From Candidatus Latescibacterota bacterium (GTDB taxonomy: Bacteria > Latescibacterota > UBA2968 > GCA-2709665): a DNA stretch of 64,000 nt. The position numbers were made by a program, and so were the translations under genes. Below the pieces are notes generated by a model that made no database searches, was not told the origin of the DNA, and worked only from the letters and a program-made list of their open reading frames with translations. The stretch spans positions 4,544,001-4,608,000 of the forward strand of contig OZ252100.1 of assembly GCA_965248435.1 (NCBI GenBank), given 5' to 3'. Shown piece by piece: positions 10,483 to 29,022 of the stretch; the stretch's first letter is position 1, and the number at the start of each line of letters is the position of its first letter.

Positions 10483-10704
10483 AAATGGGTTCTTCGCCGA
10501 GTCCGATCATACTTTTGCCGGCCATCGCTGTAGGACCGGTCTCCTGACCGGGAACTGGCTTCACATTCTTCTTCTAAGGCCAGAATGCAATGCCGGCAAT
10601 CTCAGCACCTTTAACCTCGGGCCCTAGTCAACGCAATCGCCCTGTTCCCCGACTGGAGTCGGATCCTACAGTTATCGGTGCCTATTCCCATGAGAGTGGT
10701 TTTG

Positions 10705-11013: not shown

Positions 11014-11055
11014 CCGGGTTCAGAAATAGATTCAGCTGTCTGGCTGGAAAATGGC

Positions 11056-11084
11056 TTGACAGCACGATCACAATTTCTTAATCT
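11056..11084 (+). promoter_or_regulatory. Sigma70 promoter of the aromatic supercluster leader
   Basis: TTGACA-17nt-TAATCT. Confidence 0.7.
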
Positions 11085-11114
11085 TTATTACAGAGCATCA
11101 AAAGGAGACTGAAA

Positions 11115-11219
11115 TTGAACTTGCAAACGGGCAGCACGCTCTTTTGGCGCAACGCATACGATGGGTCCTTCTGGTATTACCGGCAAGGCGCGCGGGGAGC
11201 TGTATGCCCACCTGGTTAA
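11115..11219 (+). CDS. Attenuator leader peptide, 34 aa, Phe/Trp/Tyr-rich
   Basis: AGGAGA RBS (11103-11108), TTG start; MNLQTGSTLFWRNAYDGSFWYYRQGARGAVCPPG; below the ORF-track length cutoff. Confidence 0.82.
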   Translation: MNLQTGSTLFWRNAYDGSFWYYRQGARGAVCPPG

Positions 11220-11274
11220 CGAGGTTCTGACCGACCGATTCAGGGGCCGTGGGCATACGCTCACGGCCCTTTTT
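11202..11274 (+). promoter_or_regulatory. Transcription attenuator (antiterminator plus terminator)
   Basis: GTATGCCCAC (11202-11211) is the exact complement of GTGGGCATAC (11249-11258), which is also part of the terminator GGGCCGTGGGC-atac-GCTCACGGCCC-TTTTT. Confidence 0.85.
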
Positions 11275-11331
11275 ACGTTCATCTAAAGGCCTTGACAATG
11301 TTTTCATTCGTTTTTTCCGTAATGCTAAGCC

Positions 11332-11360
11332 GTAGAGACGCCCCGCCGGGGCATCTCTAC
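11332..11360. repeat. GTAG-type REP-like palindrome
   Basis: GTAGAGACGCCCC-GCC-GGGGCATCTCTAC. Confidence 0.7.
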
Positions 11361-11386
11361 AGGACATTCAAGGATCGGGTTGGATC

Positions 11387-12856
11387 ATGATTTCCCTCGA
11401 AAACGTTCGCGGTTTGGCTGATCGCGGAGGGTTGGTTCCGGTGTCTCGTAAGATTCTGGCTGACACCGAGACGCCTGTCTCGGCCTACCTCAAGATTCGC
11501 TCCAAAAGCCCATACGCCTTCCTGTTCGAAAGCGTGGAGGGTGGCGAGAAGATCGGTCGCTACTCGTTCCTGGGCGTCGGACCCTTTCTCATCTTCAGGT
11601 CGCGGGGCGCCGAAATCCAGGTAGAGGATCTGGAAAAGGGCGAAAAGAAGACGTTCGAAGGAGATCCGATCTCCGAATTCCGAAAGCTGTTGAAGCGTTT
11701 TCGTTCGGTACACGTGGATGGCCTGCCGCGATTTACAGGCGGCGCCGTCGGCTACGTCGGCTACGATGCGATCCGCCTGATCGAGGACATTCCAGACCAG
11801 ACGGTGGATGACATGGAACTGGACGATATCCTCTTTCTGTTCTTCGATACGCTGCTGGCGTTCGACAACATCCAACACCAGATTCATCTCATTTCGAACG
11901 TTCACACGAGTGGAAATCTGGAGGCCAGCTACCGAAGAGCGGTGGACCGGATCATCTCTCTGGAGGAGACCTTGCAGCGTCCGTCCCTGGTTACGCTTTC
12001 TAAAGGGGGGAGCGCCTGCGATGTGCGGTCAAACACCGAACCTTCGGATTATCTGGACAAGGTTCGTCGTTGCAAGGAATATATCGTTTCGGGAGACGTG
12101 CTCCAGGTGGTGCTCTCTCAACGATTTGAAACAGAAGTAACGGTAGATTCCTTAGACGTCTACAGAATGCTTCGTGTCGTGAATCCTTCACCGTATATGT
12201 TTCACCTGGATCTCAAAGACCTGCAGATTGTCGGCACGTCTCCGGAGTTGCTCGTTCGCGTAGAGGAAGGGGTCGTTCAGGTGCGCCCTATCGCTGGAAC
12301 GCGATGGCGGGGTCAGACGGAGCAGGAAGATCGTCACCTGGCCGATGAGCTGCTCGCCGACGAAAAGGAGCGGGCCGAGCACATTATGCTTGTTGATCTC
12401 GGCCGAAATGACGTCGGACGTGTGTCAGAATTCAACACGGTTCGCGTGACCGATCAGATGGTGATCGAGCGCTATTCACACGTGATGCACATCGTTTCGA
12501 ACGTGATGGGTGAACTCCGTAAGGACGTGGATGCGCTCGACGCCCTTTTCGCGTGCTACCCCGCTGGCACGGTTTCAGGGGCCCCGAAGGTTCGTGCGAT
12601 GGAGATCATCGACGAGCTCGAGCCGACCCGGCGGGGACCGTATGCTGGTGCCGTGGGTTACATCGACTTTTCTGGAAACATGGACACCTGCATCGCGATT
12701 CGAACGATGATCCTGAAAAACGGCAAGGCATACGTACAGGCAGGAGGAGGTATCGTGTTCGATTCGGTCCCCGAAAACGAATACCAGGAAACTGTGAACA
12801 AATCCCGGGCACTATTCCGAGCGGTCGAGCTGGCGGAGCGCGGGGAACTCAGATGA
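11387..12856 (+). CDS. trpE: Anthranilate synthase component I
   Basis: [48 protein letters not shown]. Confidence 0.96.
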
Positions 12857-13416
12857 TCCTGATGATCGATAATTACGATTCCTTCACGTATAACCTGGTC
12901 CAGTATTTGGGAGAGCTGGGGGCCGAGTTGGAGGTCCATCGCAACGATCAGATCTCACTTCAGGAAGTGGAAAGCCTTGCGCCAGAAAAGGTTGTGATCT
13001 CGCCCGGCCCGTGTACGCCGAACGAGGCGGGAATCTCAGTGGAATTGATTCAGGTGTTTGCAGGCCGGTTTCCCATTCTGGGGGTCTGTTTGGGACACCA
13101 ATCGGTCGGTCAGGCCTTCGGGGCCGACATCGTCGGCGCACCCACAATTATGCACGGCAAGGTTTCGGAGATATACCACGACGACAGGACGGTTTTCAAG
13201 GGTCTTTCGCAGGGCTTCGTTGCCACCCGCTATCACTCCCTTGTCGTGGATAGAGAAACACTGCCGGACTGTATGGAGGTCTCGGCCGAAACGTCGGAGG
13301 GAACAATCATGGGCGTTCGACATAAAAAGCTGCCCGTCGAGGGCGTCCAGTTCCACCCAGAGTCGATCCTGACTGGTGAAGGGAAAAATCTCCTTCGAAA
13401 TTTCTTGGAGGCCTGA
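12853..13416 (+). CDS. trpG: Anthranilate synthase component II (glutamine amidotransferase)
   Basis: [36 protein letters not shown]; ATGA overlap with trpE. Confidence 0.95.
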
Positions 13417-13426
13417 GGGGATAGAA

Positions 13427-14440
13427 ATGGACATGCAGGCAGCAATTGCTAAAGTGATAGAGGGTGAGGATCTCACTCGCGGAGAAACCGTCGCAGTGAT
13501 GGACCAGATTATGTCCGGGAAGGCGACCGAGGCACAGATTGGTGCGTTTCTGGTAGCGCTCCGCCTTAAAGGGGAGACGGTGGATGAGATCGTTGGCGCT
13601 GTTGAAGTGATGCGTGAAAAAGCAACTCCAATAGAGACAAGTCACGACATCGTCGTCGATACCTGCGGGACGGGTGGCGACCGTTCAGGTACATTCAATA
13701 TCTCCACAACGGCCGCCTTTGTGGTTTCCGGCTCAGGATTATGCGTAGCGAAACACGGAAACCGCGCGGCATCGAGCCAATGCGGAAGTGCCGACGTGTT
13801 GAAGGCGCTCGGTGTGAACATCGAAGCAACACCGGAGAAGGTTGGCGCGTGCCTGGACAAGGTAGGTATCGGGTTCTTGTTCGCGCCCGCGCTGCACGGA
13901 GCCATGAAGCACGCCATCGGCCCGCGCCGTGAGATCGGCATTCGCGTGATCTTCAATGTCCTCGGGCCGCTAACGAATCCTGCGGGCGCACGTCGGCAGC
14001 TGATTGGGGTTTACGACAGTGATTTGACCGAGACGCTGGCCGAGGTGCTTGGGCAGCTCGGATCTGAGCGGGCCCTCGTGGTACACGGTCTGGATGGGTT
14101 GGACGAGATTACGCTGACGGGTCCAAGCCGAGTATCTGAGCTAAAAGACGGAGACGTAAAGAGCTACGAGGTTGCGCCGGAAGATTTCGGGCTTTCGCGG
14201 AGCAGCGCGGAAGATCTAAAAGGGGGAGATGCCGAGACGAACGCCGATATCCTCCGGTCCGTGCTGGTCGGTCAGAAAGGTCCGACACGGGATGTCGTCC
14301 TCCTGAATGCTGCCGCGGCCCTCGTCGCGGGCGGGAGAGCAGAGGATATCTCAACGGGGGTCGAGATTGCTGCGGGAGCGATCGATTCTGGAATGGCTAT
14401 GCAGAAGTTGGAAGGCCTGATTGCGGAAAGTAACACTTAA
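13427..14440 (+). CDS. trpD: Anthranilate phosphoribosyltransferase
   Basis: [30 protein letters not shown]. Confidence 0.96.
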
Positions 14441-14442
14441 TG

Positions 14443-14620
14443 CCGTGGATCGTGGATCGACGTTCGTGGATCGTGAAAAGACCGGGTACCGGGTATCATA
14501 AGAGATCGGCGGTGTAGGGGCGACGCACGCGTCGCCCGGGGGAAAGCAAAATACGGGTACCGGGGTTCGGGTAAGAGATCGCGGATCGCGGATTTCGAAT
14601 TGGGGATTGCGGAATCGAAT
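14443..14620. repeat. Composite intergenic repeat: heptamer arrays plus GTAG REP
   Basis: GTGGATC, CCGGGTA and ATTGCGG-type units; GTAGGGGCGACGCACGCGTCGCCC at 14514-14537; similar layout at 28861-29016. Confidence 0.7.
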
Positions 14621-14793
14621 GCAGAACAGATGGATCACTTTATCGACAACCCCCCTGAATCCCTGAGTGCGGAGGCTGTAAGTTCGTTTTGGATCGCGCG
14701 TCCGTATATCGAAGGGTCGGGCATAGCGAGCATTAGTCGTCAACTTCCGTGGATCGCGGGGGATGGCGGGCAAATTCCAGGAAGATTGATAAC

Positions 14794-15585
14794 GTGGGTG
14801 GAATTCTAGACGAAATTATCGAGTACAAGCGAGCGTTCGTCTCGGAGGCCCGCAAGCAGGTGTCGATCGAGGAAATGGCACAAACGGCCGCGAGTCGCCT
14901 GCCAGGTTCTTCTTTCGCGGGGAGCCTTACGGCCAGTGAGGACGTTGCAGTGATCGCCGAGGTGAAGAAGGCGTCGCCCTCCCGGGGGGTTATTCGGGCC
15001 GATTTCGATCCGGTGGCGATCGCGAAGACCTATGCGTCACAGGGGGCGTCGGCCATTTCTGTCCTAACAGACGAAAAGTACTTCCAAGGATCGGCGGGCG
15101 ACCTGAGCCTTGTGCGCAAAGCGGTCAATATTCCAGTGCTTCGTAAGGATTTCGTCGTTGACGCCTACCAGGTTTACGAGGCGAGGCATTTGGGTGCCTC
15201 TGCTGTCCTGCTGATCGTCGCCGCCCTATCGGCCGGCGAACTAGGGAATTTCATCGATCTGTGCAGGGAAGTCCGGATTGATGCCCTGGTCGAGGTGCAC
15301 ACCGAAGCGGAACTCGAGGTCGCTCTCAGGGCGGAGGCAAAGATCATCGGGATCAACAACAGAGATCTCAGGACCTTTGAGACCGATCTGCAGACGACGA
15401 TGACGGTCGTAAAAAAGATTCCCAGCGGGACGATTGTGGTGAGCGAAAGTGGGATCTTTACCAGGGATGACGTGCTTAAGGTGCAGGATGTCGGCGTGGA
15501 TGCGGTGCTGATTGGAGAGGGTTTGATGCGGGAGGCCGATATGGGTGCGAAACTTCGTGAATTGCTGGGACGGCAGGCCGCGTGA
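14794..15585 (+). CDS. trpC: Indole-3-glycerol phosphate synthase
   Basis: ILDEII, IAEVKKASPS, SVLTDEKYFQG, LRKDF, GINNRDL, SESGI; GTG 14794 is the likely start. Confidence 0.95.
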   Translation: MGGILDEIIEYKRAFVSEARKQVSIEEMAQTAASRLPGSSFAGSLTASEDVAVIAEVKKASPSRGVIRADFDPVAIAKTYASQGASAISVLTDEKYFQGSAGDLSLVRKAVNIPVLRKDFVVDAYQVYEARHLGASAVLLIVAALSAGELGNFIDLCREVRIDALVEVHTEAELEVALRAEAKIIGINNRDLRTFETDLQTTMTVVKKIPSGTIVVSESGIFTRDDVLKVQDVGVDAVLIGEGLMREADMGAKLRELLGRQAA

Positions 15586-15592
15586 GGACGGT

Positions 15593-16213
15593 ATGGTTCA
15601 GGTGAAGATCTGCGGGATTACGAATCCGGAAGACGCCCTGTTCGCGGCTGAGCTTGGGGCTGACGCACTTGGGCTTATCTTCTATAACGAGAGCCCTCGC
15701 TATGTCAGCCCCGAATGCGCTGCTGAGATTGTGGCGGGATTGCCTCCGTTTGTTACCCCTGTAGGGGTTTTCGTGAATGAGGTTAAGGAGCGGACCGAAG
15801 AGATTGTGCGCCTCGTCGGCCTCAGGGCCATTCAGCTCCACGGCGATGAACCGCCCGAGGCCTGCAGCGGATACTCGATTCCTGTCATCCGGGCAGTACG
15901 CGTGGGTGACGAGCTCGATCTAGATGAGCTGAGCCGATACCCCGTTGAGACATTTCTGCTGGACACAGCCAGGGCGGGCTTGTATGGCGGCACCGGCGAA
16001 CCGTTCGACTGGTCAGTTGCGCGAAATGCTTCTTCGGCCAGGAGGATTATCCTGTCGGGTGGAATCGATCCTGAAAACGTTGCAGCTGCCATCGGGGCCG
16101 TCCAACCCTACGGGGTTGACAGCAGCAGTGGGGTGGAGGCTGCACCGGGACGCAAGGATCACCAGAAGCTGACGGCCTTCTTCGAGGCCGTTCGGTCTGT
16201 CGATGGTCGCTGA
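15593..16213 (+). CDS. trpF: Phosphoribosylanthranilate isomerase
   Basis: VKICGIT, QLHGDE, GGTGEPFDW, GVDSSSGVE. Confidence 0.95.
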   Translation: MVQVKICGITNPEDALFAAELGADALGLIFYNESPRYVSPECAAEIVAGLPPFVTPVGVFVNEVKERTEEIVRLVGLRAIQLHGDEPPEACSGYSIPVIRAVRVGDELDLDELSRYPVETFLLDTARAGLYGGTGEPFDWSVARNASSARRIILSGGIDPENVAAAIGAVQPYGVDSSSGVEAAPGRKDHQKLTAFFEAVRSVDGR

Positions 16214-16225
16214 TTCTTGAGACGA

Positions 16226-17503
16226 ATGGGGAACACCCAAGTGGATATCATAGAAGACCTGGAATTCAGGGGATACGTTTCCCAGAATTCCGACCCCGAG
16301 GGGTTGAAGCAGAGGCTCTCCACTGAACCCGTGACGCTCTACGCAGGTTTCGATCCGACGGCGGACAGTCTGCACGTGGGGAGCCTGATCCCCATCCTGG
16401 GGCTCCGTCGCTTCCAGATGGCGGGACATAGACCGATTGCACTCGTCGGCGGGGGAACGGGTCTGATCGGTGATCCGAGCGGCAGGGCCTCCGAGCGACA
16501 GTTGAACACCAAAGAAGTCGTGGACGGGTTCGTGGAACAGCAGAAGAGACAGCTGGAACAGTTTCTGGATTTTGAATCGAAGGGCAACGCGGCAAGCGTC
16601 GTAAACAACTTCACGTGGCTCTCCGAGCTCGGGATGATCGAATTCCTGAGAGATATCGGGAAGCATTTTCCGCTGGGATACATGCTTGCCAAGGAGTCCG
16701 TGGCGTCACGACTCGAGGCGGGCATCTCGTTTACGGAATTCAGCTACATGGTCTTTCAGGCGTGTGATTTCCTGGAACTGTTTTCCAGGTTCGACTGCGA
16801 GTTGCAGATCGGCGGAAGCGACCAGTGGGGAAACATTACGGCTGGGATCGAGCTCATCCGGCGGAAACTCGGGAAGCAGGCCTACGGGCTGACCTTTCCC
16901 CTGCTCGAAAAGGCGGATGGGAGCAAGTTCGGAAAGACGGAGTCGGATAACGTCTGGCTTGATCCAGTGAAATCGAGCCCATACCAGTTTTATCAATTTT
17001 GGATCAATACAGACGATCGCGATGTTATCAAGTTCTTGAAGATCTTCACGTTCCTCTCGAAAAAGGAGATCCTGGATGTCGAGGCAGAGGTCCTGGATCG
17101 ACCTGAAAAGCGGACGGCGCAACGCGTTCTGGCGGAGAGCGTGACGGAGTTGGTGCACGGGGCGGGGGCTACTCAGCGGGCAGCGCACATATCGCAGTCC
17201 CTTTTTTATGGCGACCTGGATAAGCTTTCAGCAGAGGAGATCGAGGAGGGGTTCAGGGATGTGCCCTCCTTCGCGCTCCAGAAGATGGACGGCATTGGGC
17301 TGATCGATCTCCTGGTGACGGCCGGCGTTTCGCCATCCAAGCGTCAGGCAAGAGAGGATGCCGGAAATGGTGCGATCACGATAAACGGGGAACGCTGCAC
17401 AGACCTCAATCGCCAGTTCGTCCCCTCAGATCGTCTGGGCGGAACCTATCTGGTCGTCCGGAGAGGGAAACAGAAATATCACCTCGTCCGGTGGGATGTT
17501 TGA
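16226..17503 (+). CDS. tyrS: Tyrosine--tRNA ligase
   Basis: YAGFDPTADSLHVG, QIGGSDQWGNI, KFGKT, C-terminal S4 domain; start could be 16217, 16226 or 16241. Confidence 0.95.
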   Translation: MGNTQVDIIEDLEFRGYVSQNSDPEGLKQRLSTEPVTLYAGFDPTADSLHVGSLIPILGLRRFQMAGHRPIALVGGGTGLIGDPSGRASERQLNTKEVVDGFVEQQKRQLEQFLDFESKGNAASVVNNFTWLSELGMIEFLRDIGKHFPLGYMLAKESVASRLEAGISFTEFSYMVFQACDFLELFSRFDCELQIGGSDQWGNITAGIELIRRKLGKQAYGLTFPLLEKADGSKFGKTESDNVWLDPVKSSPYQFYQFWINTDDRDVIKFLKIFTFLSKKEILDVEAEVLDRPEKRTAQRVLAESVTELVHGAGATQRAAHISQSLFYGDLDKLSAEEIEEGFRDVPSFALQKMDGIGLIDLLVTAGVSPSKRQAREDAGNGAITINGERCTDLNRQFVPSDRLGGTYLVVRRGKQKYHLVRWDV

Positions 17504-17546
17504 ATAGCGGATTTTGGATTGCGGAATGAAAGGGAAGTGATTCGAC

Positions 17547-18761
17547 GTGTCGTCTGTAAAACACACAACAACGCTGCCTGACGAACAGGGTCGTTTTGGG
17601 CCATATGGTGGCCGGTTTGTGCCGGAGACGCTGATGTGTCTCCTGGAGGATCTGGAAGCGGCCTACGGGGAAGCCAAGGATGACCCAGAGTTCAAGCGCG
17701 AGCTAGACACCTACCTTCGCGAGTACGTCGGTCGGCCAACACCGCTCTACTTTGCGGAAAGGTTGACCAAAGCGCTGGGAGGTGCGAAGATCTACCTGAA
17801 GCGTGAGGACCTGGCTCATACCGGGGCCCACAAAATCAACAATACGATGGGACAGATCCTGCTTGCCAGGCGGATGGGCAAGAAGCGAATCATCGCGGAG
17901 ACTGGCGCGGGTCAGCACGGGGTAGCCACGGCGACAGTAGCGGCCATGTTCGGTCTGGAATGCGAGATCTACATGGGGACGGAGGACATGGACCGGCAGG
18001 CGCTCAACGTGTTCAGGATGCGCCTTCTGGGGTCCAAAGTGACCGGGGTCACCTCAGGAAGCAGAACACTCAAGGATGCGATCAACGAAGCGATCCGGGA
18101 CTGGGTGACCAACGTCGAAACGACCTTTTACATTTTTGGTTCTGTGCTCGGTCCGCATCCCTATCCTATGATCGTCAGGGACTTTCAGCGTGTAATTGGC
18201 GTGGAGACCAGGGAGCAGATTCTAAAAGCGGAAGGGAGGCTCCCAGACTGCCTGATCGCCTGCGTGGGGGGTGGAAGCAACGCGATTGGGCTGTTTCACG
18301 AGTTTCTGGATGACAAGGAAGTGAAGATGATCGGTGTGGAAGCGGGCGGGCACGGAATTTCGACGGGGGAACACGCGGCGCGGTTTCAGGGCGGGGATCT
18401 GGGCGTCCTTCACGGGGCGCGTATCTATCTTCTGCAGGACAAAAACGGTCAAATCGCCCTTACCCACTCTGTTTCGGCGGGGCTGGACTACTCGGGCGTC
18501 GGTCCGGAACACTGTTACCTCAGAGATGAGGGACGGATCGATTATACCTACGCGACGGACGAGGAGGCCCTCGAAGGTTTTGAGAGGCTAAGTCAAACGG
18601 AAGGAATTCTGCCTGCACTCGAGAGCGCACACGCGATCGCAGAGGTCAAAAAGGTCGCTCCCCGCATGGAGAAGGACAGCATCATCATCGTCAATCTTTC
18701 AGGAAGGGGAGACAAAGACGTTCAGCAGGCTGCAAAGTTCTTAGGGGGGATGGACGAATAG
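17547..18761 (+). CDS. trpB: Tryptophan synthase beta chain
   Basis: [41 protein letters not shown]. Confidence 0.97.
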
Positions 18762-18763
18762 AT

Positions 18764-19582
18764 ATCACGACCCGAATATCGAGGACCTTTCTCCGGCTCA
18801 AAGAGAACTCCGAGACCGGATTCATCGCCTACGTCACCGCAGGTGATCCTGACCTGAAGACGAGCGAAGCGCTCGTGCTCGAACTGGAGCAGCGTGGGGT
18901 AGATATCGTAGAACTGGGCGTTCCCTTTTCAGACCCGATGGCCGATGGGACGATCAACCAGGCCTCGGCTCAGAGGGCCCTTTTGCACAACGTCTCCCTT
19001 CTGGATGTTCTTGCCATGGCCGAACGACTTCGTGCTCGAACCGACCTCCCGATTGTCCTTTTCACATACTACAATCCGGTACACCATATGGGTCTTGAAG
19101 CCTTTGCGGATCGGGCCGCAGACGCAGGGGTCGACGGAGTTCTGGCACTGGATCTGCCTCCTGAGGAGGCCGGGGACTATAAGCGTCTCCTGAATAGAGG
19201 AGGTTTGGATACGATCTTCCTCGTAGCCCCGACCAGCAGGGAGCACCGGATCCGTTTGATCTCATCGGTTTCGACGGGATTCGTCTACTGTGTTTCTCGA
19301 ACGGGTGTTACTGGGGAACGCGAGGGACTTTCAGATAGAGTTCGGCCTCTGGTTGAAAGTGTGCGGTGCCACACGACTGAGCCGATCGCCGTGGGCTTCG
19401 GTGTGTCGCAACCCGATCAGGTCTCTGAGATCGCCGCCTACGCAGACGCAGTTGTCGTCGGGAGCGCAATCGTTCGGAAAATCGGGGAGGAGGCCGAGAA
19501 GGGCGGGAATCTGATCTCCAATGTGGGACAATTCGTGGAGACGCTCGTCGGGCCTTCAAAAGGGGTAACGCATGGACATTGA
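18764..19582 (+). CDS. trpA: Tryptophan synthase alpha chain (non-canonical start)
   Basis: ELGVPFSDPMADG, SRTGVTG, VGFGV, VGSAIV; conserved N-terminus TTRISRTF...GFIAYVTAGDPD lies in frame upstream of GTG 18875, with only ATC 18764 or ATA 18758 as candidate starts. Confidence 0.93.
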   Translation: MTTRISRTFLRLKENSETGFIAYVTAGDPDLKTSEALVLELEQRGVDIVELGVPFSDPMADGTINQASAQRALLHNVSLLDVLAMAERLRARTDLPIVLFTYYNPVHHMGLEAFADRAADAGVDGVLALDLPPEEAGDYKRLLNRGGLDTIFLVAPTSREHRIRLISSVSTGFVYCVSRTGVTGEREGLSDRVRPLVESVRCHTTEPIAVGFGVSQPDQVSEIAAYADAVVVGSAIVRKIGEEAEKGGNLISNVGQFVETLVGPSKGVTHGH

Positions 19583-19847
19583 GGACTGGCGAAAGAAGAT
19601 CGATGAACTGGATGCGAAGTTGTTGGAACTGCTGAACGAAAGGGTATCCCTGGCGCTGGAGATCGGTAAGATCAAGGCCACAAATGCAAAGCCAGTCTAT
19701 TCACCCGATCGGGAAGCCTATATTCGAAACCGTCTCAAGACGCTGAATTCGGGGCCGTTGCCCGATGAAGCTGTCGATCGACTTTTTCAGATGATCATCG
19801 ATGAGTCTCGGCGCATGGAGGAGGAGGACAGCGGAGCGGAGGAGTAA
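19572..19847 (+). CDS. Chorismate mutase, AroQ class
   Basis: R..IDELD..LLELLNER...A.EIG.IK...PVY.PDRE. Confidence 0.9.
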   Translation: MDIEDWRKKIDELDAKLLELLNERVSLALEIGKIKATNAKPVYSPDREAYIRNRLKTLNSGPLPDEAVDRLFQMIIDESRRMEEEDSGAEE

Positions 19848-19879
19848 AACCCTGGCCGGCAGGTAGGAGAGTTAGAGGG

Positions 19880-20908
19880 ATGAGTTTTACAGCGATTTGC
19901 GAGCTTCCGGGTCCCGAGGCCATTCAGGAGGCGATTCCCCTTTCAGAGGAGTTGAAGCGGATCAAGTCTGAGAGGGATCAGGAGATCCGGGCGATTTTCG
20001 AGCGGAAGAGCGAGAAATTTCTCGTTGTGATCGGGCCATGTTCGGCGCACGACGAAGATGCGGTTTGTGAATACGTAAGCCGACTCGCCAGGCTCCAGGA
20101 GGAAGTAAAGGAGCGGCTCGTTCTGATCCCGAGAATCTACACGAACAAGCCGAGGACGACAGGGGAAGGGTACAAGGGTATGGGGCACCAGCCGGACCCT
20201 CAGAAGGAACCCAATATTGCCGAGGGCATCAGTGCCATTCGGAGGATGCACGTGCGGGCCCTTGGGGAATCGCACCTGACGGCTGCGGACGAGATGCTCT
20301 ACCCTGGAAATACGCCTTATCTCGAAGATGTGCTGAGCTACGTCGCCATCGGGGCGCGGTCTGTAGAAAACCAGCAGCACCGGCTGACGGCCAGCGGCCT
20401 CGACGTGCCCGCTGGGATGAAGAACCCGACGGGCGGAGATCTGGACGTGATGTTGAACGCGATCTATGCTGCTCAGCTATCTCACGTTTTCAGTTACAAC
20501 GGCTGGGAAGTCGAGACGACCGGTAATCCTCTGGCACACGCCCTTTTGAGGGGCTTCGTAGATTCTTCCGGGAGGAGCATTCCGAACTATCACCACGAGG
20601 ATCTGATCCACATCGCTGAAGCGTATTTGAAACGCTCGCCTGCCAATCCGTCGATTATCGTGGACACAAACCACGCCAACTCGAACAAGCAGTTCCAGGA
20701 GCAGCCGAGGATCGGCATGGAAGTGATCCGAAGCCTCCAGAGTTCTGATCTTTTGAGAGGGATGATCCGGGGACTCATGGTCGAAAGTTATCTGGTGGAG
20801 GGATCTCAAGACGTAGATGAAGAGGTCTACGGAAAATCAATCACGGATTCCTGTCTGGGTTGGGAGGCGTCGGAAGATTTTGTGAGACAGGTCGCAGAGG
20901 TGTGCTGA
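19880..20908 (+). CDS. DAHP synthase, class I alpha
   Basis: VIGPCSA, KPRTTGEGYKG, AIGARS, GMKNPT, DTNHANS, GKSITDSCLGW. Confidence 0.94.
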   Translation: MSFTAICELPGPEAIQEAIPLSEELKRIKSERDQEIRAIFERKSEKFLVVIGPCSAHDEDAVCEYVSRLARLQEEVKERLVLIPRIYTNKPRTTGEGYKGMGHQPDPQKEPNIAEGISAIRRMHVRALGESHLTAADEMLYPGNTPYLEDVLSYVAIGARSVENQQHRLTASGLDVPAGMKNPTGGDLDVMLNAIYAAQLSHVFSYNGWEVETTGNPLAHALLRGFVDSSGRSIPNYHHEDLIHIAEAYLKRSPANPSIIVDTNHANSNKQFQEQPRIGMEVIRSLQSSDLLRGMIRGLMVESYLVEGSQDVDEEVYGKSITDSCLGWEASEDFVRQVAEVC

Positions 20909-20927
20909 ATCCGATAAGGCGTGGTTT

Positions 20928-21092
20928 AATTGCGGATTGCGGATCTGGGATTGCGGAATGGGAGGGAACGTATCTCGTATCAGGTATCTCGGCGTTAATG
21001 ACCTTCTTAGTACAACAGCGCGATTCGATTCTATCCTATTCGGAGAGCAAGATGTATCCGACGAGATACACTTCACGAGATACGAGATACGC
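20928..21092. repeat. Heptamer arrays with inverted arms
   Basis: ATTGCGG-type units, then CGTATCT units (~20969-20991) facing AGATACG units (~21061-21091). Confidence 0.7.
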
Positions 21093-21106
21093 TCGAAGAG
21101 TCGACT

Positions 21107-22219
21107 ATGTCGGATGATACCCAATTCGCTTCAGCCAGGATTACGATCGTTGGCGTCGGGCTGATCGGTGGATCGCTCGGGCTTGCCCTCAAGCGCTTTG
21201 GGATTGGACGAGAGATCGTCGGGGTCAGCCGACCCGAGACAGTTGAAGCCGCGAAAAAAATGGGGGCCATTGACACAGGATTTGACTATGATCAATTGAA
21301 AGCGGGTGTGGAGGAATCTGAACTTGTGATTCTCTCGACGCCCATTTCCCGGATTCTGGAGCTCTTACCCGAGGTTGTGTCCGGGGTTTCAGAAGGGACT
21401 CTGATTACCGACGTCGGGAGTACCAAGCGCGAAATCGTTGCTGTGGCATCTTCATTGAAGCGGGAAGGGGTCATCTTCGTCGGGGGGCACCCGATGGCGG
21501 GGTCCGAGCAGAGGGGCGTGACGGCCGCCGATCCCTTCCTTTTCGAGAACGCGATCTATATCGTTACCCCAGAGGATGACGTTCCCGAACTCTGGGTGAA
21601 TCGTTTGGTGAACCTGATCGGCCGCCTTGGTGCAAGGCCGATGCGGATCACTGCGCAGGCCCACGATCGTGTTGCTGCCGCGGTGAGTCACCTGCCCCAG
21701 TTGATGGCCACGGCTCTGGTTGGGATGATTGGACGGCTCCACGAGCAGGACGGGGTCCCGATCGAGATGGCAGCCGGGGGGTTCCGGGATCTGACGCGGA
21801 TCGCATCGAGCCCCTACGCAATGTGGCGCGACATCTGCAAGACAAATGTAGGACCGATCCGGGAGATGATCGATCTGTATCTCAGGGATCTGGGCGCCCT
21901 GCGAGATCGAGTGGATGACGACGAATTGGCGGGCAACTTCTCGTATGCAAATGAGATCCGAGGCAATATTCCCAAGGACTCGAAGGGATTTCTCCATACC
22001 CTACACGAGATCTTACTGATCGTCGAGGACCGCCCCGGAGTGATTGCAGGGGTTGCGACAGCGCTTTCGTCGGCAGGGATCAACATCGATGACATCGAAG
22101 TGCTCAAGGTTCGCGAGAGAGAGGGGGGTACGATTCGTATGGGATTCGATACGAAGGAAACCGCCGCGCGGGCCATTGCTATTCTGGATGAGGCGGGTTA
22201 CCGAGTTCGGATGAGGTAG
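21107..22219 (+). CDS. tyrA: Prephenate/arogenate dehydrogenase with C-terminal ACT domain
   Basis: GVGLIGGS, TDVGSTK, GGHPMAGSE, HD...AAVSHLPQ, GFRDLTRIA; ACT EDRPGVIA. Confidence 0.93.
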   Translation: MSDDTQFASARITIVGVGLIGGSLGLALKRFGIGREIVGVSRPETVEAAKKMGAIDTGFDYDQLKAGVEESELVILSTPISRILELLPEVVSGVSEGTLITDVGSTKREIVAVASSLKREGVIFVGGHPMAGSEQRGVTAADPFLFENAIYIVTPEDDVPELWVNRLVNLIGRLGARPMRITAQAHDRVAAAVSHLPQLMATALVGMIGRLHEQDGVPIEMAAGGFRDLTRIASSPYAMWRDICKTNVGPIREMIDLYLRDLGALRDRVDDDELAGNFSYANEIRGNIPKDSKGFLHTLHEILLIVEDRPGVIAGVATALSSAGINIDDIEVLKVREREGGTIRMGFDTKETAARAIAILDEAGYRVRMR

Positions 22220-22222
22220 AGA

Positions 22223-23551
22223 ATGGAGATGAGAGAGCTCGTTTCTGAGTCAATGGAGCAGACGGTCTCGCCGATCAAGGGACTTTCGGGTGAGTGCGAT
22301 CTTCCAGGGCATCCAGAGCTGTCCATGATGGCGCTGGCCCTGTCGGCCAAGGCCGAGGGGACGTCTATTATCCGCCGATGCTCGCGCCGGCCTGAGGTAA
22401 AGACCCTCGCAGGATACCTGGCCCAGATAGGGATAACGGTGGGCTGGGAGGCTGAGGAAGCCAGGGTCACGGGGGGCGTGCTTCAGGCCTCGAATGGTGC
22501 GTTTGATGTCGGGCGATCCGAAGTCCTCTTCGGGTGCCTGGCCGGGCTTGCCGCGGGGGCGGACCTTAGACTGACGTTTGAGGGAAGTCCAGCCGCCGAA
22601 ACCGGCGTGAAGCCCGTCCTGGAAGCGCTTCAATCGTTCGGCGCAAGGTTCACTCCATCCTTCGAAAGCGTCTTCCCCGTAGAGAGCGGGGGCAGCAAGC
22701 CGAGACCCGGTTCTTTCGGTGCCGGCAGGCCAAGCGCTGCAGTCAAAACAGCTGTTTTCCTGGCTACGCTGGATGTCGGCGGTGAGATCGAACTGCTTCA
22801 GGAGGCCGCAGGCGAAGAGGATCTCGAGGTCCTGCTGAAGGCAGCGGGAGGAGACCTTAGGAAGGCCAGGGTTCAGGGAGGGGAAGGCTATCGCCTCGTG
22901 CTGCGCGGACCGGTGTCGGTTCAGGCGACCGAGCAAGATCTTCCAGGGGACCCGGATGCCGCCTTGTTTCTTTTGTTCGCCGCATCCATGCATAAGACGT
23001 CCGACGTGACGCTGCTCGGTGTTGGAAATGACTGGAAGACCCGACGGCTGCTGGACCTGCTGCGGCGGATGAACGCACAGATCGAGATCAAGGTGACACG
23101 ATCCGCATCAGGATTTTCCACGCGCATCGTGCGCGCGACGGGATCGGAGCTTCGGCGTACGAAGATTTCGGGGGAGCAGTCGTCCCTCTTTATGGACGAG
23201 ATCCCGGTTCTGGCCGTGATGGGCGCGCGGGCGGCCGGCGAGACGGTCATTCGGGATGCCCGTGCTCTGCGCGATGGTCCCAACGACTGCCTTGCCTTGA
23301 TGGCGGAGAATCTTCGCAAGATGCAGGTCCGCGTCGGAGAGATTACAGACGGGTTGGTGGTCCAGGGGGGAAGGACGCTTCGCGGCGCGGATGTGGATGG
23401 GGGTGGGGATTCGCGCGTCACCCTGGCGCTTACGCTTGCAGGGCTTGTGGCAGAAGGAGAAACGAAGATCAAAAATCCGGGCCCCGTCGATCGAGACTAC
23501 CCCGGCGTTCTGGACCGCTTGTTGTCCCTGAGCGAAAAGAGAGGGGAGTGA
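22223..23551 (+). CDS. EPSP synthase (AroA)-fold protein with degenerate active site
   Basis: Collinear with class II AroA (PGD..AA.F, DEIP, GETVIRDA, DGLVVQG, YP) but KSISHR, GNSGT, RPM, SAQ, RDHTE, KETxR and DHR motifs are substituted. Confidence 0.85.
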   Translation: MEMRELVSESMEQTVSPIKGLSGECDLPGHPELSMMALALSAKAEGTSIIRRCSRRPEVKTLAGYLAQIGITVGWEAEEARVTGGVLQASNGAFDVGRSEVLFGCLAGLAAGADLRLTFEGSPAAETGVKPVLEALQSFGARFTPSFESVFPVESGGSKPRPGSFGAGRPSAAVKTAVFLATLDVGGEIELLQEAAGEEDLEVLLKAAGGDLRKARVQGGEGYRLVLRGPVSVQATEQDLPGDPDAALFLLFAASMHKTSDVTLLGVGNDWKTRRLLDLLRRMNAQIEIKVTRSASGFSTRIVRATGSELRRTKISGEQSSLFMDEIPVLAVMGARAAGETVIRDARALRDGPNDCLALMAENLRKMQVRVGEITDGLVVQGGRTLRGADVDGGGDSRVTLALTLAGLVAEGETKIKNPGPVDRDYPGVLDRLLSLSEKRGE

Positions 23552-23553
23552 TT

Positions 23554-23694
23554 ATGAAGGTGTTACTCAGGTTGGCACTGTTGACGATTCTCACGGTTTT
23601 TGGGGCCGTCGCCTTTATTCGGTATACCTATGGCTGTTCCTGGAAGGAAAGTTTCGACATCGCGGACCGGTTCGTCGAGGACCTCCTAGGGTAA
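23554..23694 (+). CDS. Small (46 aa) single-TM membrane protein
   Basis: GAGGGGAG RBS; MKVLLRLALLTILTVFGAVAFIRYTYGCSWKESFDIADRFVEDLLG; fills the gap between the aroA-like gene and aroE. Confidence 0.7.
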   Translation: MKVLLRLALLTILTVFGAVAFIRYTYGCSWKESFDIADRFVEDLLG

Positions 23695-23703
23695 GGATCC
23701 AGT

Positions 23704-24570
23704 TTGAAGATCCAGGCAACGAGTCAGGTGCTCGGTGTGATCGGGCACCCGATTTCTCATTCTTTTTCCCCAGACCTTCACAACGCCGCAATCGATGCCC
23801 TTGGCATCGATTATTGCTATGTGGCCTATCATGTCCTGCCGGATAGGGTTGGATCCGCGATCGAGGGATTGCGCGGCCTGAACATTCGGGGTCTAAACGT
23901 TACGATTCCCCATAAACTGGCGGTGATGGAACATCTGGACCAGATTTCGGAGGAGGCCCTGGCCGTCGGTGCTGTGAACACGATCTCGCACGAAGCGGAC
24001 GAGTTGATCGGCTACAACACGGACGTCTACGGAATTGAGGCCGCACTGGTGCGCGTGGCCGGTCTGGAACTGTTGCCAGAAAACTGCGTTGTCCTGGGTG
24101 CGGGTGGTGCCGCTCGGGCGGTTGTCTACGCCCTTGGGAATCGGAAGGAAGTCCAAAGGATCACGATCTTGAACCGAACCGCAAAGCGGGCCGAGGACCT
24201 TGCCAAGGACATGGAAAAGTTGACGGGGAAGACGATCGATGTTGGCGGAATGGACGCCGACGGCCAGGATCGGGCCTTTTCGGAGGCGGGACTCGTCGTG
24301 AATGCGACTTCACTGGGGATGGTTCCGAACATAAAAGATTCCCCCCTGATGAGCGAACGTGCGGTTCACTCAAACCTGGTACTCTACGACACCGTATTCA
24401 ACCCACTCGAGACCCGGCTTATGGGGCAGTTCCGTGAGGTGGGGGCTCAGGCCTTTGGCGGCCTGGATATGCTCGTCTTTCAGGGCGCGCGATCGTTCCA
24501 GATATGGACCGGTATCGAGCCCCCCGTCGATGTGATGAAGCAGGCTGTTCTCTCCAGTCTTAAGACTTAG
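23704..24570 (+). CDS. aroE: Shikimate dehydrogenase
   Basis: GHPISHSFSP, NVTIPHK, GAVNT, GYNTD, GAGGAARA, NRT, MLVFQG. Confidence 0.95.
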   Translation: MKIQATSQVLGVIGHPISHSFSPDLHNAAIDALGIDYCYVAYHVLPDRVGSAIEGLRGLNIRGLNVTIPHKLAVMEHLDQISEEALAVGAVNTISHEADELIGYNTDVYGIEAALVRVAGLELLPENCVVLGAGGAARAVVYALGNRKEVQRITILNRTAKRAEDLAKDMEKLTGKTIDVGGMDADGQDRAFSEAGLVVNATSLGMVPNIKDSPLMSERAVHSNLVLYDTVFNPLETRLMGQFREVGAQAFGGLDMLVFQGARSFQIWTGIEPPVDVMKQAVLSSLKT

Positions 24571-24572
24571 CT

Positions 24573-25283
24573 GTGGGCCCGAACAGAGATGTGAAGCGGG
24601 TATTCGTGCGTGGAATGTTCGACCGGATCGCGGGGACGTATGACCTGCTCAACCACGTTCTCAGCGCGGGTATCGACATCCTGTGGCGCCGCAAGGCGAT
24701 TGACGGGCTTGGACCCGAGCCCGCCTGGCGGGTGCTTGATCTGGCGACCGGCACGGGCGATCTCGGGTTTGAGGTCTCGCGACGCGACTCGCACATCTCT
24801 GTGGTGGGAGTGGACGTCTCAATCCCCATGCTTCGGCGGGGGATCGAAAAGGCGGAGTCCAGACCAGGCCGCACAACCTTCTGCTGTGGCGACGCAGGGC
24901 ATCTCCCCTTGTCGAGTGGTCGGTTTGAAGGGGTGACGATCGGGTTCGGGATTCGGAACGTGTGGGACGTGGATGCTGCTCTGAAGGAGATCCATCGTGT
25001 CCTGCGCCCTGGAGGCAGGCTTGCTGTTCTCGAGTTCTCCCGCCCTCGACTGTTCCTGCTCAGGGACCTCTACTTCTTCTACTTCAAACACGTCCTTCCC
25101 ACGGTCGGCCGCGTAGTTTCTGGTGACCGCCGTGCGTATCAATACCTCTACGAGTCCGCGATGCAGTTTCCCGAGGGCCGGGATTTCTGTCGTCACCTCG
25201 AAAACGAACGATTCGTAGACCTGATCGAGAACCGTATGACGTTCGGGATTGCGACGCTCTACCTTGCCCGAAAGCCCGAATAG
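24573..25283 (+). CDS. ubiE: Demethylmenaquinone methyltransferase (UbiE/MenG)
   Basis: MFDRIA..YDLLNHVLS.G.D..WR, LDLATGTGD, FGIRNV, LEFS, AYQYL.ES. Confidence 0.92.
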   Translation: MGPNRDVKRVFVRGMFDRIAGTYDLLNHVLSAGIDILWRRKAIDGLGPEPAWRVLDLATGTGDLGFEVSRRDSHISVVGVDVSIPMLRRGIEKAESRPGRTTFCCGDAGHLPLSSGRFEGVTIGFGIRNVWDVDAALKEIHRVLRPGGRLAVLEFSRPRLFLLRDLYFFYFKHVLPTVGRVVSGDRRAYQYLYESAMQFPEGRDFCRHLENERFVDLIENRMTFGIATLYLARKPE

Positions 25284-25303
25284 GAACGATCGGAGATTTT
25301 ATT

Positions 25304-27010
25304 TTGCCGAACCCCTTTGTAGATGAGATCGTGCAGCAACTGGCCCAGGCATCGGGTGTTTCATCTGAGGACTTCGTCCCCCTGATCGAAGTGCCCCCAA
25401 ATCCGGACCTGGGAGATTACGCGCTGCCCTGTTTTAGCCTGGCAAAGACGCTTCGGAAGGCCCCGAACCAGATCGCGCTGGAGTTGGCAGAGCAGTTGAA
25501 ATTCGGCGACAGGATCTCGGAGGTACGCGCGGCGGGACCCTATATCAATTTCTTCGTTCACCCGTCCAGCTTTGTCGAGGAGGTCCTCTCGAAGGTTCTT
25601 GCCCAGAGTCGAGAGTTCGGTCGTACAGATGTCGGGACTGGTAAGACGATCGTCATCGATTTTTCCCACCCGAACGTCGCCAAGCCTTTCGGGATTCATC
25701 ACCTGCGTTCGACAGTGATCGGGAATGCGCTCAGGAATATCTTCCGGGCGCTGGGATACGAGGTTGTGGGCGTCAACCACCTAGGAGACTGGGGTTCTCA
25801 GTTCGCCAAGCTCATTGTGGCCTGGAAGCGCTGGGGTGAAGGCGAGCTCACAGAAGAGGCCATCAACATCCAATCGCTTTTGGATCTCTACGTGCGAATC
25901 CACGAGGAGATCGAAGACGATCCTGCGGTAGAAGAAGAAGCCCGAAACTGGTTCCGACGCCTGGAGGACGGAGATGCTGAAGCCACGCGTATGTGGCAGG
26001 TATGCGTTAATGTCAGCTTCAAAGAGTTCAACCGCGTTTATGAAACGCTGGGGATCACGTTTGAATCCGTGGCGGGGGAGAGTTTTTATCAGGATAAGAT
26101 GCCGGCTACGCTCAAGCGGTTGGAGGAGATGGGACTTACCCGGATCAGCGAAGGGGCGACGATTGTAGACCTCTCCGAGTGGGATATGTCTCCCTTCATG
26201 GCCCTGCGAAGTGACGATGCCACGCTTTATGCCACGCGCGATCTGGCCGCGGTCGAATACCGCCAGGAAACCTACGGGTTTCATCAGATGCTCTATGTGG
26301 TAGACGTGGCGCAGTCTCTGCATTTCAGGCAGCTGTTCAAGGTCCTGGAGTTGATGGGCTATGAATGGGGCGAACGATGTGCCCACGTCGTGTTCGGCCG
26401 GCTTCGCTTCAAGGATGGAGCGATGTCTACGCGGCGGGGTCAGATTATCTTTCTGGAAGACGTGCTGAACAAGGCGGTGGATCTGACACGGGAGATCATC
26501 GAAGAGAAGAACCCGGATTTGCCGGACAAGGAGCAGGTGGCTCGAGATGTGGGGATCGGGGCTGTAATCTTCGCTGACTTGGATTCCCGTCGGGTTCGGG
26601 ACGTTGTGTTCGACTGGGACGAAGTCCTGAATTTTAACGGAGAGACCGGGCCTTATGTTCAGTATACACACGCGCGCTATCGTAGTGTGCTGCGGAACTT
26701 TGGACAAGCCCTGCCCCCTTCGGATGTCGATTTCTCTCTTCTGACCGAGCCTGAGACGCTTGCCGTTGTGAAATGCCTGGAACAGTTCCCGTCGCAGATT
26801 GAAAACGCGGCTGAGGAGTATGAACCCTCGCTCATCGCCACATATCTGATCGATCTGTGTAGGGTCGCGAACCGGTTCTACAACGCACACCGCGTGATTT
26901 CGGAAGAGGCACCGCTGACATCGGCGCGCGTGGCGCTCGTTTATGCCATCACGGAAGTGCTGGCCGCCGGGCTGGATCTTCTGGGCATGAAGGCGCCCGA
27001 GCAGATGTGA
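25304..27010 (+). CDS. argS: Arginine--tRNA ligase
   Basis: DFSHPNVAKPFGIHHLRST, NHLGDWG, MSTRRG, GETGPYVQYTHAR, C-terminal PEQM. Confidence 0.95.
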   Translation: MPNPFVDEIVQQLAQASGVSSEDFVPLIEVPPNPDLGDYALPCFSLAKTLRKAPNQIALELAEQLKFGDRISEVRAAGPYINFFVHPSSFVEEVLSKVLAQSREFGRTDVGTGKTIVIDFSHPNVAKPFGIHHLRSTVIGNALRNIFRALGYEVVGVNHLGDWGSQFAKLIVAWKRWGEGELTEEAINIQSLLDLYVRIHEEIEDDPAVEEEARNWFRRLEDGDAEATRMWQVCVNVSFKEFNRVYETLGITFESVAGESFYQDKMPATLKRLEEMGLTRISEGATIVDLSEWDMSPFMALRSDDATLYATRDLAAVEYRQETYGFHQMLYVVDVAQSLHFRQLFKVLELMGYEWGERCAHVVFGRLRFKDGAMSTRRGQIIFLEDVLNKAVDLTREIIEEKNPDLPDKEQVARDVGIGAVIFADLDSRRVRDVVFDWDEVLNFNGETGPYVQYTHARYRSVLRNFGQALPPSDVDFSLLTEPETLAVVKCLEQFPSQIENAAEEYEPSLIATYLIDLCRVANRFYNAHRVISEEAPLTSARVALVYAITEVLAAGLDLLGMKAPEQM

Positions 27011-27047
27011 GAGGCCGCGGCGCGCCGTCAGAGAGAGCAGTGATTGA

Positions 27048-27611
27048 ATGGACCCCGTTCCCGATCGTCAGATTTTCATCACCGGGTTTATGGCTACTGG
27101 AAAGAGCAAGATCGGCCCGATCGTCGCGAACTGTCTGGGACGGTCCTACGTGGATACTGACGATTTGATTCAAGAGGTGGCGGGGAAGACGATTCCAGAG
27201 ATTTTTGAGGAGGATGGCGAGGCGGCCTTTCGGAAGATCGAGCAGGACTGTGTCAGAAAAGCCTCCGGGATGCAGAATTCTGTGATCGCCTTGGGGGGTG
27301 GTGTGGTCACACACGAGGCCAACTGGGAGACGATTCGTTCTACGGGGATCTGTATCTGCTTGCGCGCCTCACCAGAGACGATCGACAGGCGAGTGGCACG
27401 AAGCCGTGAGCGGCCCCTGCTTGACGGATTGAATGACAAGACTCGAATGGAAAAGATTTGCGAGCTGCTCGCGGAGCGTGAGCCGTTCTATAGCAGGGCG
27501 GATCTGTTCGTGACGTCGACCGAAAACCGGAAGCCGGAAGGTACAGCGGAACTCGTTGTCGAGGCGTTGATGAAGTTTGCCCAAGAGACCGGGGACCGGG
27601 AAAGTAAATGA
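27048..27611 (+). CDS. aroK: Shikimate kinase
   Basis: GFMATGKS, DTD, IF..DGE..FR..E, GGG, RPLL, REPFY. Confidence 0.94.
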   Translation: MDPVPDRQIFITGFMATGKSKIGPIVANCLGRSYVDTDDLIQEVAGKTIPEIFEEDGEAAFRKIEQDCVRKASGMQNSVIALGGGVVTHEANWETIRSTGICICLRASPETIDRRVARSRERPLLDGLNDKTRMEKICELLAEREPFYSRADLFVTSTENRKPEGTAELVVEALMKFAQETGDRESK

Positions 27612-27660
27612 CGGGTACCGTGAAGCCGTCGCTCGTCGCTCGTCGTTCGCGGTTCGCAAA
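27586..27660. repeat. Heptamer arrays overlapping the aroK 3' end
   Basis: GACCGGG x2 and TCGCTCG/TCGTTCG units. Confidence 0.55.
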
Positions 27661-27758
27661 CTAAAACCTTACCATATATGCCTGCCCCAGAAAATGCTTT
27701 TATTCCGGGGGCACAGAAGACACAGAGAAGATAGAGCGATGAAGAAAAGGCAGGATCG

Positions 27759-29016: not shown

Positions 29017-29022
29017 ACAATC

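Follow-up and report, generated by a model that had tools for sequence, protein, structure and literature searches.

The window analysed here, a 64,000-nucleotide stretch of a Candidatus Latescibacterota bacterium (assembly GCA_965248435.1, contig OZ252100.1, positions 4,544,001 to 4,608,000 of the forward strand), carries upstream of trpE an element that is, with high confidence, a ribosome-mediated (leader-peptide) transcription attenuator, standing at the head of a 17-gene aromatic cluster. The fuller statement, in which an attenuator of this kind is combined with a response to several aromatic amino acids, is one that we consider probable, with lower confidence. A shortage of charged aromatic tRNA would most likely turn up the cluster, and sensing of Phe, Trp and Tyr by this one leader is plausible.

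Architecture of the leader and proposed mechanism

The element is composed of a promoter (P1), a Shine-Dalgarno sequence, a short open reading frame (ORF) that starts with TTG, an antiterminator strand and an intrinsic terminator (Table 1). Promoter, ribosome-binding site, TTG-initiated ORF, aromatic codons, a 10-nt complement and the terminator had all been put forward in a preliminary description made from the letters alone, and each of them was found in its place. The ORF encodes MNLQTGSTLFWRNAYDGSFWYYRQGARGAVCPPG, which contains two Phe, two Trp, three Tyr and three Arg residues, the aromatic codons being F10, W11, Y15, F19, W20, Y21 and Y22. Near its end, GTATGCCCAC (11202-11211) is the exact reverse complement of GTGGGCATAC (11249-11258), the latter constituting the inner 5' arm and loop of the terminator hairpin, in which 9 of the 13 pairs are G-C. 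In a terminator scan of 9500-29400, this hairpin was the top entry and the sole one on the plus strand with more than 9 pairs. The -10 hexamer of P1 shares only three of six positions with TATAAT in the window, which is why the promoter is not listed in a consensus promoter scan; 35 of 39 relatives have a promoter of the same type (TTGAC(A/T), 16-18 nt, TAnnnT) 5' of the leader, and in most of the 39 a purine-rich, Shine-Dalgarno-like stretch (GGAG, GGAGG, AAGGAA or AGAGA) stands ahead of the start codon, which is TTG, ATG or GTG at the aligned position. Altogether, the features by which attenuators of this kind are recognised are present: a short ORF led by a Shine-Dalgarno sequence, enrichment in codons for the end products, an intrinsic terminator, and a mutually exclusive antiterminator that a ribosome standing on the stop codon could cover.

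The element had also been described as unannotated, and this agrees with the database searches, as no Rfam, Pfam or NCBIfam model matches the leader or its peptides. An Rfam scan of 10000-13000 at E-values of up to 10 gave one noise match (E = 5.1), while a scan of the whole window at gathering scores gave none, be it a Trp leader, another amino acid leader or a T-box.

From these features we infer translation of the leader, ribosome stalling, the response to each amino acid and the reach of read-through. Transcription would start from P1, near 11091, and a ribosome would translate the leader as RNA polymerase proceeds. A ribosome that reached the stop codon (11217) would cover 11202-11211, so that the hairpin 11242-11271 could form and the transcript would end at about 11272-11274. 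A ribosome stalled at a hungry F10/W11, Y15 or F19-W20-Y21-Y22 codon would leave 11202-11211 free to pair with the emerging 11249-11258, in which case the terminator would be blocked and the polymerase would enter trpE and the genes downstream. Since the Phe, Trp and Tyr codons all lie within the span where stalling would be productive, and are kept together in every relative of the order, the leader is most likely a multi-aromatic OR-gate, one that would respond to more than one charged aromatic tRNA and in which Tyr would be weighted most in the order to which the bacterium belongs.

Table 1. Features of the trpE leader and its surroundings (positions in the window).
Feature	Position	Strand	Remark or basis
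Promoter P1	11056..11084	+	-35 TTGACA 11056-11061, 17-nt spacer, -10 TAATCT 11079-11084
Shine-Dalgarno sequence	11103..11108	+	AGGAGA, 6 nt 5' of start codon
Leader ORF	11115..11219	+	34 sense codons and stop; TTG start 11115, TAA 11217-11219
Region 1, 5' strand of predicted anti-antiterminator	11129..11144	+	Minimum free energy (MFE) fold; partner 11194-11209
Candidate regulatory codons F10-W11	11142..11147	+	
Candidate regulatory codon Y15	11157..11159	+	
Aromatic codon run F19-W20-Y21-Y22	11169..11180	+	Four in a row
Region 2, antiterminator 5' strand	11202..11211	+	Perfect 10-nt complement; within final ORF codons
Intrinsic terminator, regions 3 and 4	11242..11274	+	13-pair hairpin 11242-11271, then T-run
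P2-like TTGACA box	11292..11297	+	3' of terminator; degenerate -10
Palindrome resembling repetitive extragenic palindromes (REP-like)	11332..11362	+	G+C-rich; trpE 5' untranslated region, outside the switch
Co-directional 17-gene cluster, trpE-trpG-trpD-trpC-trpF-tyrS-trpB-trpA-chorismate mutase-DAHP synthase-tyrA-aroA-aroE-ubiE/menG-argS-aroK-aroB	11387..28862	+	NCBIfam scan

Competing helices and their covariation

Pairing was evaluated on two alignments, A1, which holds 39 sequences of the order, and A3, which holds 16 class-wide rows hand-chosen from about 60 known leaders. For the terminator, 97.0% of the cells are paired on A1, with four compensatory pairs, and 93.8% on A3, with seven. 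The antiterminator core UGCCC:GGGCA is invariant on A1, and that alignment therefore says little on antiterminator covariation; on A3, 89.1% of the antiterminator cells are paired and compensatory changes are seen in five of eight pairs. Covariation in both stems, which the preliminary description had named as a check of its proposal, is thus found. None of 500 shuffles of A3 reached the observed antiterminator pairing or covariation, and slid partners gave 25-47%, these shuffle counts not being probabilities, since the window supplied the structure and the rows were picked. The changes seen on A3 stem from about two independent lineages (family f4 and locus L042).

Column 86 of A3 belongs to both structures, with G in 12 rows and A in the other four. 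In these four rows, its change from G to A is coupled to a change from C to U in both partners, namely column 14 in the antiterminator, which is C, U or a wobbling U according to column 86, and column 101 in the terminator, which is C or U accordingly. A switch would predict just this, that one base follows the two partners with which it pairs in turn, and such dual covariation of one terminator base is an uncommonly clear computational sign of an RNA switch. Moreover, GTATGCCCAC is translated as V-C-P in genus g1 and, in another frame, as C-M-P-T in g2 and g4; as the frame differs and the segment is kept, the constraint acts on the RNA rather than on the peptide. RNAalifold, run on the 39 sequences, returned the terminator alone. 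Overall, the geometry of attenuation proposed earlier, in which an antiterminator overlaps the 3' end of a leader ORF and excludes the terminator, is borne out class-wide by conservation and covariation.

Two competing helices would suit equally well a terminator/antiterminator switch run by a T-box, a riboswitch or an RNA-binding protein, and translation of the leader is itself a prediction. Nevertheless, we regard a switch of that sort as extremely improbable, given that no Rfam family matches, that the 39 leaders align in their start codon and the Shine-Dalgarno-like stretch before it, and that what is conserved in the aromatic codons is the type of amino acid, either synonymous codon being used.

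Conservation across relatives

TrpE is present in all 41 genomes of the order, and a promoter, a Shine-Dalgarno sequence, an ORF of 30-35 codons and a U-tailed terminator lie upstream of trpE in 39 of them. Of the two misses, G036 has a contig cut 152 nt before trpE, and in G027 the leader was recovered at the opposite end of its contig. Alignment of the trpE upstream regions, as the preliminary description had recommended, shows that the ORF and its Phe, Trp and Tyr codons are kept in all 39 leaders of the order. R1, a covariance model based on these 39 sequences, was searched in the class (132 genomes), where it matched 21 of 21 genomes of family f1 and 30 of 31 of family f2; in a sample of the phylum, none of 36 genomes from ten other families was matched. 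Direct reading of trpE upstream regions revealed diverged leaders in 3 of 3 genomes of f3 and, among the 19 genomes of f4 with this TrpE type, in 18, the remaining 57 genomes of f4 giving no match at 1e-120. At least 60 species genomes carry the unannotated leader. In other phyla, 64 of 80 named trpE loci lack an upstream terminator-like hairpin under the criteria used, and L065, L074 and L107 have leaders with a WWW run; L042, which lies outside the class, is the sole locus among the 80 with a mixed Phe/Trp/Tyr leader of the same design. Some weak extra matches of R1 were discarded, as they proved to be gene-end terminators or another leader-like ORF.

The same comparisons bear on whether the element could be an independent small gene or small RNA, with trpE transcribed from a second promoter-like box past the terminator, an explanation that we consider very unlikely. 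A box consisting of TTGACA, 17 nt and a (T/A)TATTA-like hexamer does follow the terminator in genera g2, g4, g5, g7, g8 and g9 and in f3 (loci L003-L010, L152, L153), and there is a precedent in Sinorhizobium, where an attenuator RNA and its leader peptide act in trans according to the available text of PMC6614838 and PMC7968998. However, the -10 of this box is degenerate (TTCCGT) in both the window and the sister genome G001, the element always adjoins trpE even though the genes upstream differ between relatives, and the N-terminus and the 3' frame of the peptide vary while the RNA helices are kept. In addition, the terminator lies 30 nt from trpE in some g3 genomes (G016, G010) and 35-41 nt from it in many g6 genomes, too near to leave room for another promoter, so that trpE would depend there on read-through from the attenuator.

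In g3 (L011, L015, L018, L020 and other loci), the start codon of the leader lies 78-86 nt past the -10, compared with 22-47 nt outside this genus, and the extra stretch between P1 and the Shine-Dalgarno sequence holds a hairpin (CCTGYCGG...CCGGCAGG). In g6, a second leader-like ORF, MNDSSKPSVALFFTTFLGWVFTLIFIQRSFRGDVCP..., is found in G028 (L165 ~2424-2680) and G030 (L166 ~2454-2680; both in reverse-complement coordinates); it ends in the same ..VCP / GUGUGCCCA motif and is followed by two terminator-like hairpins and then by an uncharacterised gene.

Codon composition and geometry of the leaders

Each of the 39 leaders of the order combines Phe, Trp and Tyr, with one to five Phe (median 3), one or two Trp (median 2) and two to six Tyr (median 5) per leader. 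Total aromatic codons have a median of about 10 in 34 in the relatives and reach 13 in 35. The leaders ..FSWRGYFYRSYRWYYRE..VCPRE of g3 and MMNAFATYFWYFWRRFDGRYYYYRRPSKSVVCPAF of g6 may serve as examples of composition; the aromatic background is 8.1% of the residues in long ORFs of the genome. The probability of at least 7 aromatic residues in 34 is 0.017, which applies to the window leader alone, and that of at least 10 in 34, a typical relative, is 2.5e-4. Arg codons number three to nine per leader of about 34 codons, against a background of 7.8%. Synonymous codons are used side by side (TAT 124, TAC 58, TTT 97, TTC 23).

The spacing is regular as well. In 31 of 39 leaders, 27 nt separate the start of the last aromatic codon from the antiterminator core, and in 31 of 39 the stop codon begins 7 nt past this core. 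The footprint of a ribosome extends about 12-13 nt beyond the A site; with such spacing, a ribosome at any aromatic codon would free the antiterminator strand, and one at the stop codon would cover it. As a separate observation made by eye, a small hairpin (11171-11183 in the window, with counterparts at this place in relatives) has the Tyr-Tyr codons in its loop and a stem formed by the flanking codons. These stems vary by clade yet stay complementary (CUGGU/ACCGG, CCGGU/ACCGG, CGAUA/UAUCG, GGCU/AGCC), and the structure may be a pause hairpin.

Within the genome, a perfect complement of at least 10 nt to the 5' arm and loop, located in the 67 nt upstream, was found for 3 of 1631 terminator-like hairpins, that of the window included; on inspection, the remaining two showed nothing interpretable. 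Among the matches listed from 515 sets of small ORF, terminator and downstream ORF, in which only ORFs preceded by a Shine-Dalgarno sequence were displayed, the window leader alone has at least five aromatic residues in eight codons. No clear leader with a single-residue run (His, Leu, Thr) was detected in a genome-wide scan, and attenuation as a general habit of this genome is thus unsupported.

We then considered which of the three amino acids the leader would answer to. It is quite unlikely that the element is an ordinary Trp-only attenuator of the trpL kind, in which the Phe and Tyr codons would be passengers, retained through RNA structure or by chance. Such a reading draws on the W-R dipeptide (TGG-CGN), which is near-invariant in A1 and the most conserved coding feature, on the Trp-rich leaders of f4 (e.g., ..RRWWWRFWSYE..; two to four Trp, zero to three Phe and zero to two Tyr in 17 leaders), on the trp genes that come first in the cluster, and on the precedent of the Corynebacterium glutamicum aroR leader, where codons are present without a response (available text of PMC11802643). 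Nevertheless, the Tyr-Tyr pair is invariant in all 39 leaders of the order (T76, A77, T79 and A80 of A1 being invariant or nearly so), Tyr codons outnumber Trp codons (median 5 versus 2), and several g3 genomes have replaced the second Trp by Arg, Leu or Tyr and retained their Tyr codons. Moreover, three leaders in other phyla (L065, L074 and L107) use a WWW run, and the operon behind the window leader serves Trp, Tyr and the common pathway, including tyrS, tyrA and chorismate mutase, which counts in favour of multi-aromatic sensing.

An attenuator dominated by Tyr and tuned to tyrS and tyrA, to which the single Phe and Trp codons would add little, is also rather unlikely. Tyr is the commonest regulatory codon and, among the aromatic residues of f1 and f2 leaders, the sole one that forms same-residue tandems or longer runs (YY to YYYY); besides, Tyr-rich leaders precede operons with tyrS and DAHP synthase in f1 and f2, and Trp-rich leaders precede operons without both in f4. 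However, this link comes from about two independent clades and has exceptions in G024 and G041, the latter an f3 genome that has no tyrS and yet a leader rich in Phe and Tyr, and Trp is never lost in the 39 leaders. Also in f3, G043 has only a weak tyrS-like match, and the DAHP synthase query was unmatched in G041 and in the readable 9.2 kb of G043. With about two independent clades behind it, the correspondence between leader codon mix and operon content is suggestive. Going further, the leader could tentatively be seen as a class-wide integrator of charging for the three aromatic tRNAs, whose single terminator would gate tyrS together with the shikimate pathway and the branches to Trp and Tyr, maybe with the conserved Arg codons as a fourth input (argS), and with a codon mix tuned to the content of the operon, Tyr-rich in f1, f2 and partly f3, where tyrS and DAHP synthase belong to it, and Trp-rich in f4, where they do not; as a whole, this wider proposal is doubtful.

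Folding energetics and points against the proposal

The terminator hairpin has a predicted energy of -25.2 kcal/mol, the antiterminator stem-loop 11202-11259 of -24.3 kcal/mol, and the upstream structure formed by regions 1 and 2 of -35.9 kcal/mol. The preliminary description had suggested folding the leader with and without a ribosome mask, and the outcome was divided. In RNA ending at 11259, where the 3' arm of the terminator is absent, the antiterminator is the MFE structure with or without a stalled ribosome, and a ribosome at the stop codon leaves weak structure only. When the full terminator is present, its fold beats a forced antiterminator under every ribosome mask tried, with a margin of 5.3 to 11.4 kcal/mol for stalled ribosomes and of 1.0 kcal/mol for a ribosome at the stop codon. 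As the terminator wins at equilibrium, the switch would have to be kinetic, as in the classical model, and for this reason equilibrium folding cannot discriminate between the two states.

This preference for the terminator is one of several observations that weigh against a multi-aromatic attenuator acting on the whole cluster. The antiterminator core is predicted to be paired to an upstream segment of the ORF in 29 of 39 relatives, with variable partners, and a shuffle test of the duplex energy between regions 2 and 3 gave a weak result (9 of 42 at <=0.05), the test being underpowered and several terminators mis-picked. In the window leader, the Phe and Trp codons are single, never tandem, and in the available text of PMC11802643 the aroR leader is reported as responsive to limitation of Phe and not of Tyr. 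The sole prephenate dehydratase gene, pheA (G000 contig C1 3579373-3579906, L197), is located about 1 Mb off the cluster, overlaps the stop codon of the preceding gene, and has neither leader nor terminator before it. Gaps of about 110-310 nt within the cluster could hold internal promoters, read-through across all 17 genes as one transcript being an extent that we infer, and in many relatives the P2-like box would bypass the attenuator to express trpE. Finally, the matched sequencing data include no RNA run of this organism, comprising one metatranscriptome (0.06 share of words) and five contig-only runs of unknown kind.

The downstream cluster and other features of the region

The aromatic supercluster that had been reported behind the leader, with trp genes, tyrS, tyrA, chorismate mutase and shikimate genes, was recovered by the NCBIfam scan as 17 genes in one direction, DAHP synthase being the tenth; the genes beyond aroB lie on the opposite strand. 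Inside the cluster sit tyrS (16217-17503), the ubiE/menG methyltransferase gene (24573-25283) and argS (25304-27010). The gene order is largely shared by all eight relatives checked, with losses in G024, G041 and G066. In f4 the cluster is shorter, trpEGDC-x-CM-tyrA-aroA-aroE-argS-aroK-aroB (CM, chorismate mutase), and has neither tyrS, nor DAHP synthase, nor trpFBA in 7 of 7 genomes. Of the 16 clusters read in relatives, 14 have argS in its place between aroE/ubiE and aroK, this region not being reached in G024 and G043.

Four gaps (14441-14748, 20909-21106, 27612-27758 and 28863-29023) are packed with the short tandem motifs CGTGGATCG, GGGTACCGGG, TTGCGGAT, CGAGATAC and GTCGCTC, and a GGGGCGACGC..GCGTCGCCC hairpin is common to two of them. 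As trpD and trpC overlap in G001, the 309-nt gap between these genes in the window is an insertion. Regarding trpA, the conserved N-terminus of its product (..FIAYVTAGDP..) is encoded in frame (window 18764-18874) 5' of the first ATG, GTG or TTG, at 18875, and no canonical start is found between that codon and the preceding in-frame stop; the gene may have a non-canonical start, e.g., ATC or ATA, just past the trpB stop.

In the 5' untranslated region of trpE, the half-site motif of the REP-like palindrome is a dispersed repeat, with 61 copies in the genome and one in the window. Downstream of the P2-like box, the corresponding region of g2, g5 and g7 (L004, L005, L006, L007, L008) carries a conserved ATAGAATTCTTA-like segment with a AGAATTCT palindrome, possibly an operator, which is absent in the window.

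Comparison with known systems

Multivalent attenuators of the thr and ilv type sense Thr/Ile or Leu/Val/Ile. As in these, one leader peptide holds in the window the codons for several amino acids made by the operon, here the aromatic triple, and this multivalent composition is present throughout the order. The aromatic supraoperon of Bacillus subtilis has an attenuator set by TRAP, a Trp-activated RNA-binding protein, and senses Trp only. It likewise has trp genes among aro and tyr genes and an attenuator right before trpE, but its attenuator is set by a protein, whereas the window has a conserved leader ORF that is predicted to be translated. TRAP is mentioned in the available text of PMC10327191.

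The logic of the trpL attenuator of the enterobacterial trp operon (PMC1183508, in its available text) is followed in the window, with a promoter, a Shine-Dalgarno sequence, a short ORF with regulatory codons, an antiterminator over the end of the ORF, a U-tailed terminator and then trpE. The differences are that trpL has a short Trp run and controls trp genes only, while the window leader has mixed Phe, Trp and Tyr codons (7 of 34) before a 17-gene aromatic cluster. A further parallel is pheST, an aminoacyl-tRNA synthetase operon under leader-peptide attenuation according to the available text of PMC11802643, in which a synthetase gene follows a leader with cognate codons, as tyrS would for Tyr, and possibly argS for Arg, in the window. 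Unlike in pheST, the synthetase genes of the window lie deep in a biosynthetic cluster, and control would have to reach as far as tyrS and argS.

The nearest mixed-aromatic case is the aroR leader of C. glutamicum, located upstream of aroF and containing Phe-Tyr-Phe (Neshat et al. 2014, via the available text of the review PMC11802643), which resembles the window leader in that a mixed-aromatic leader peptide attenuates a shikimate-pathway operon. Compared by description, aroR has two kinds of aromatic codon and precedes DAHP synthase, while the window leader has three kinds and precedes trpE and a far larger cluster. In Actinobacteria, the available text of PMC1262725 describes no conserved RNA regulatory structures upstream of phenylalanine and tyrosine operons.

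The preliminary description knew of no trivalent aromatic attenuator in this lineage. This agrees with a full-text literature search (supplements and the 2008 trp operon review of Merino, Jensen and Yanofsky being outside it), in which no leader with all three aromatic codon types was found; the claim of novelty has to be narrowed in that a bivalent leader, aroR, exists. The mechanism itself is textbook, and what is new, as far as the literature was searched (including the available text of PMC4833913), is an aromatic leader of trivalent composition, its conservation throughout the class, and the extent and gene content of the cluster. The present alignments could provide a leader model for Rfam, and the element is a candidate for a naturally occurring sensor with three inputs, the levels of the aromatic aminoacyl-tRNAs. 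Altogether, these findings would extend classical attenuation to a little-studied class, where it appears to head an aromatic gene cluster that is among the largest and that contains two genes for aminoacyl-tRNA synthetases.

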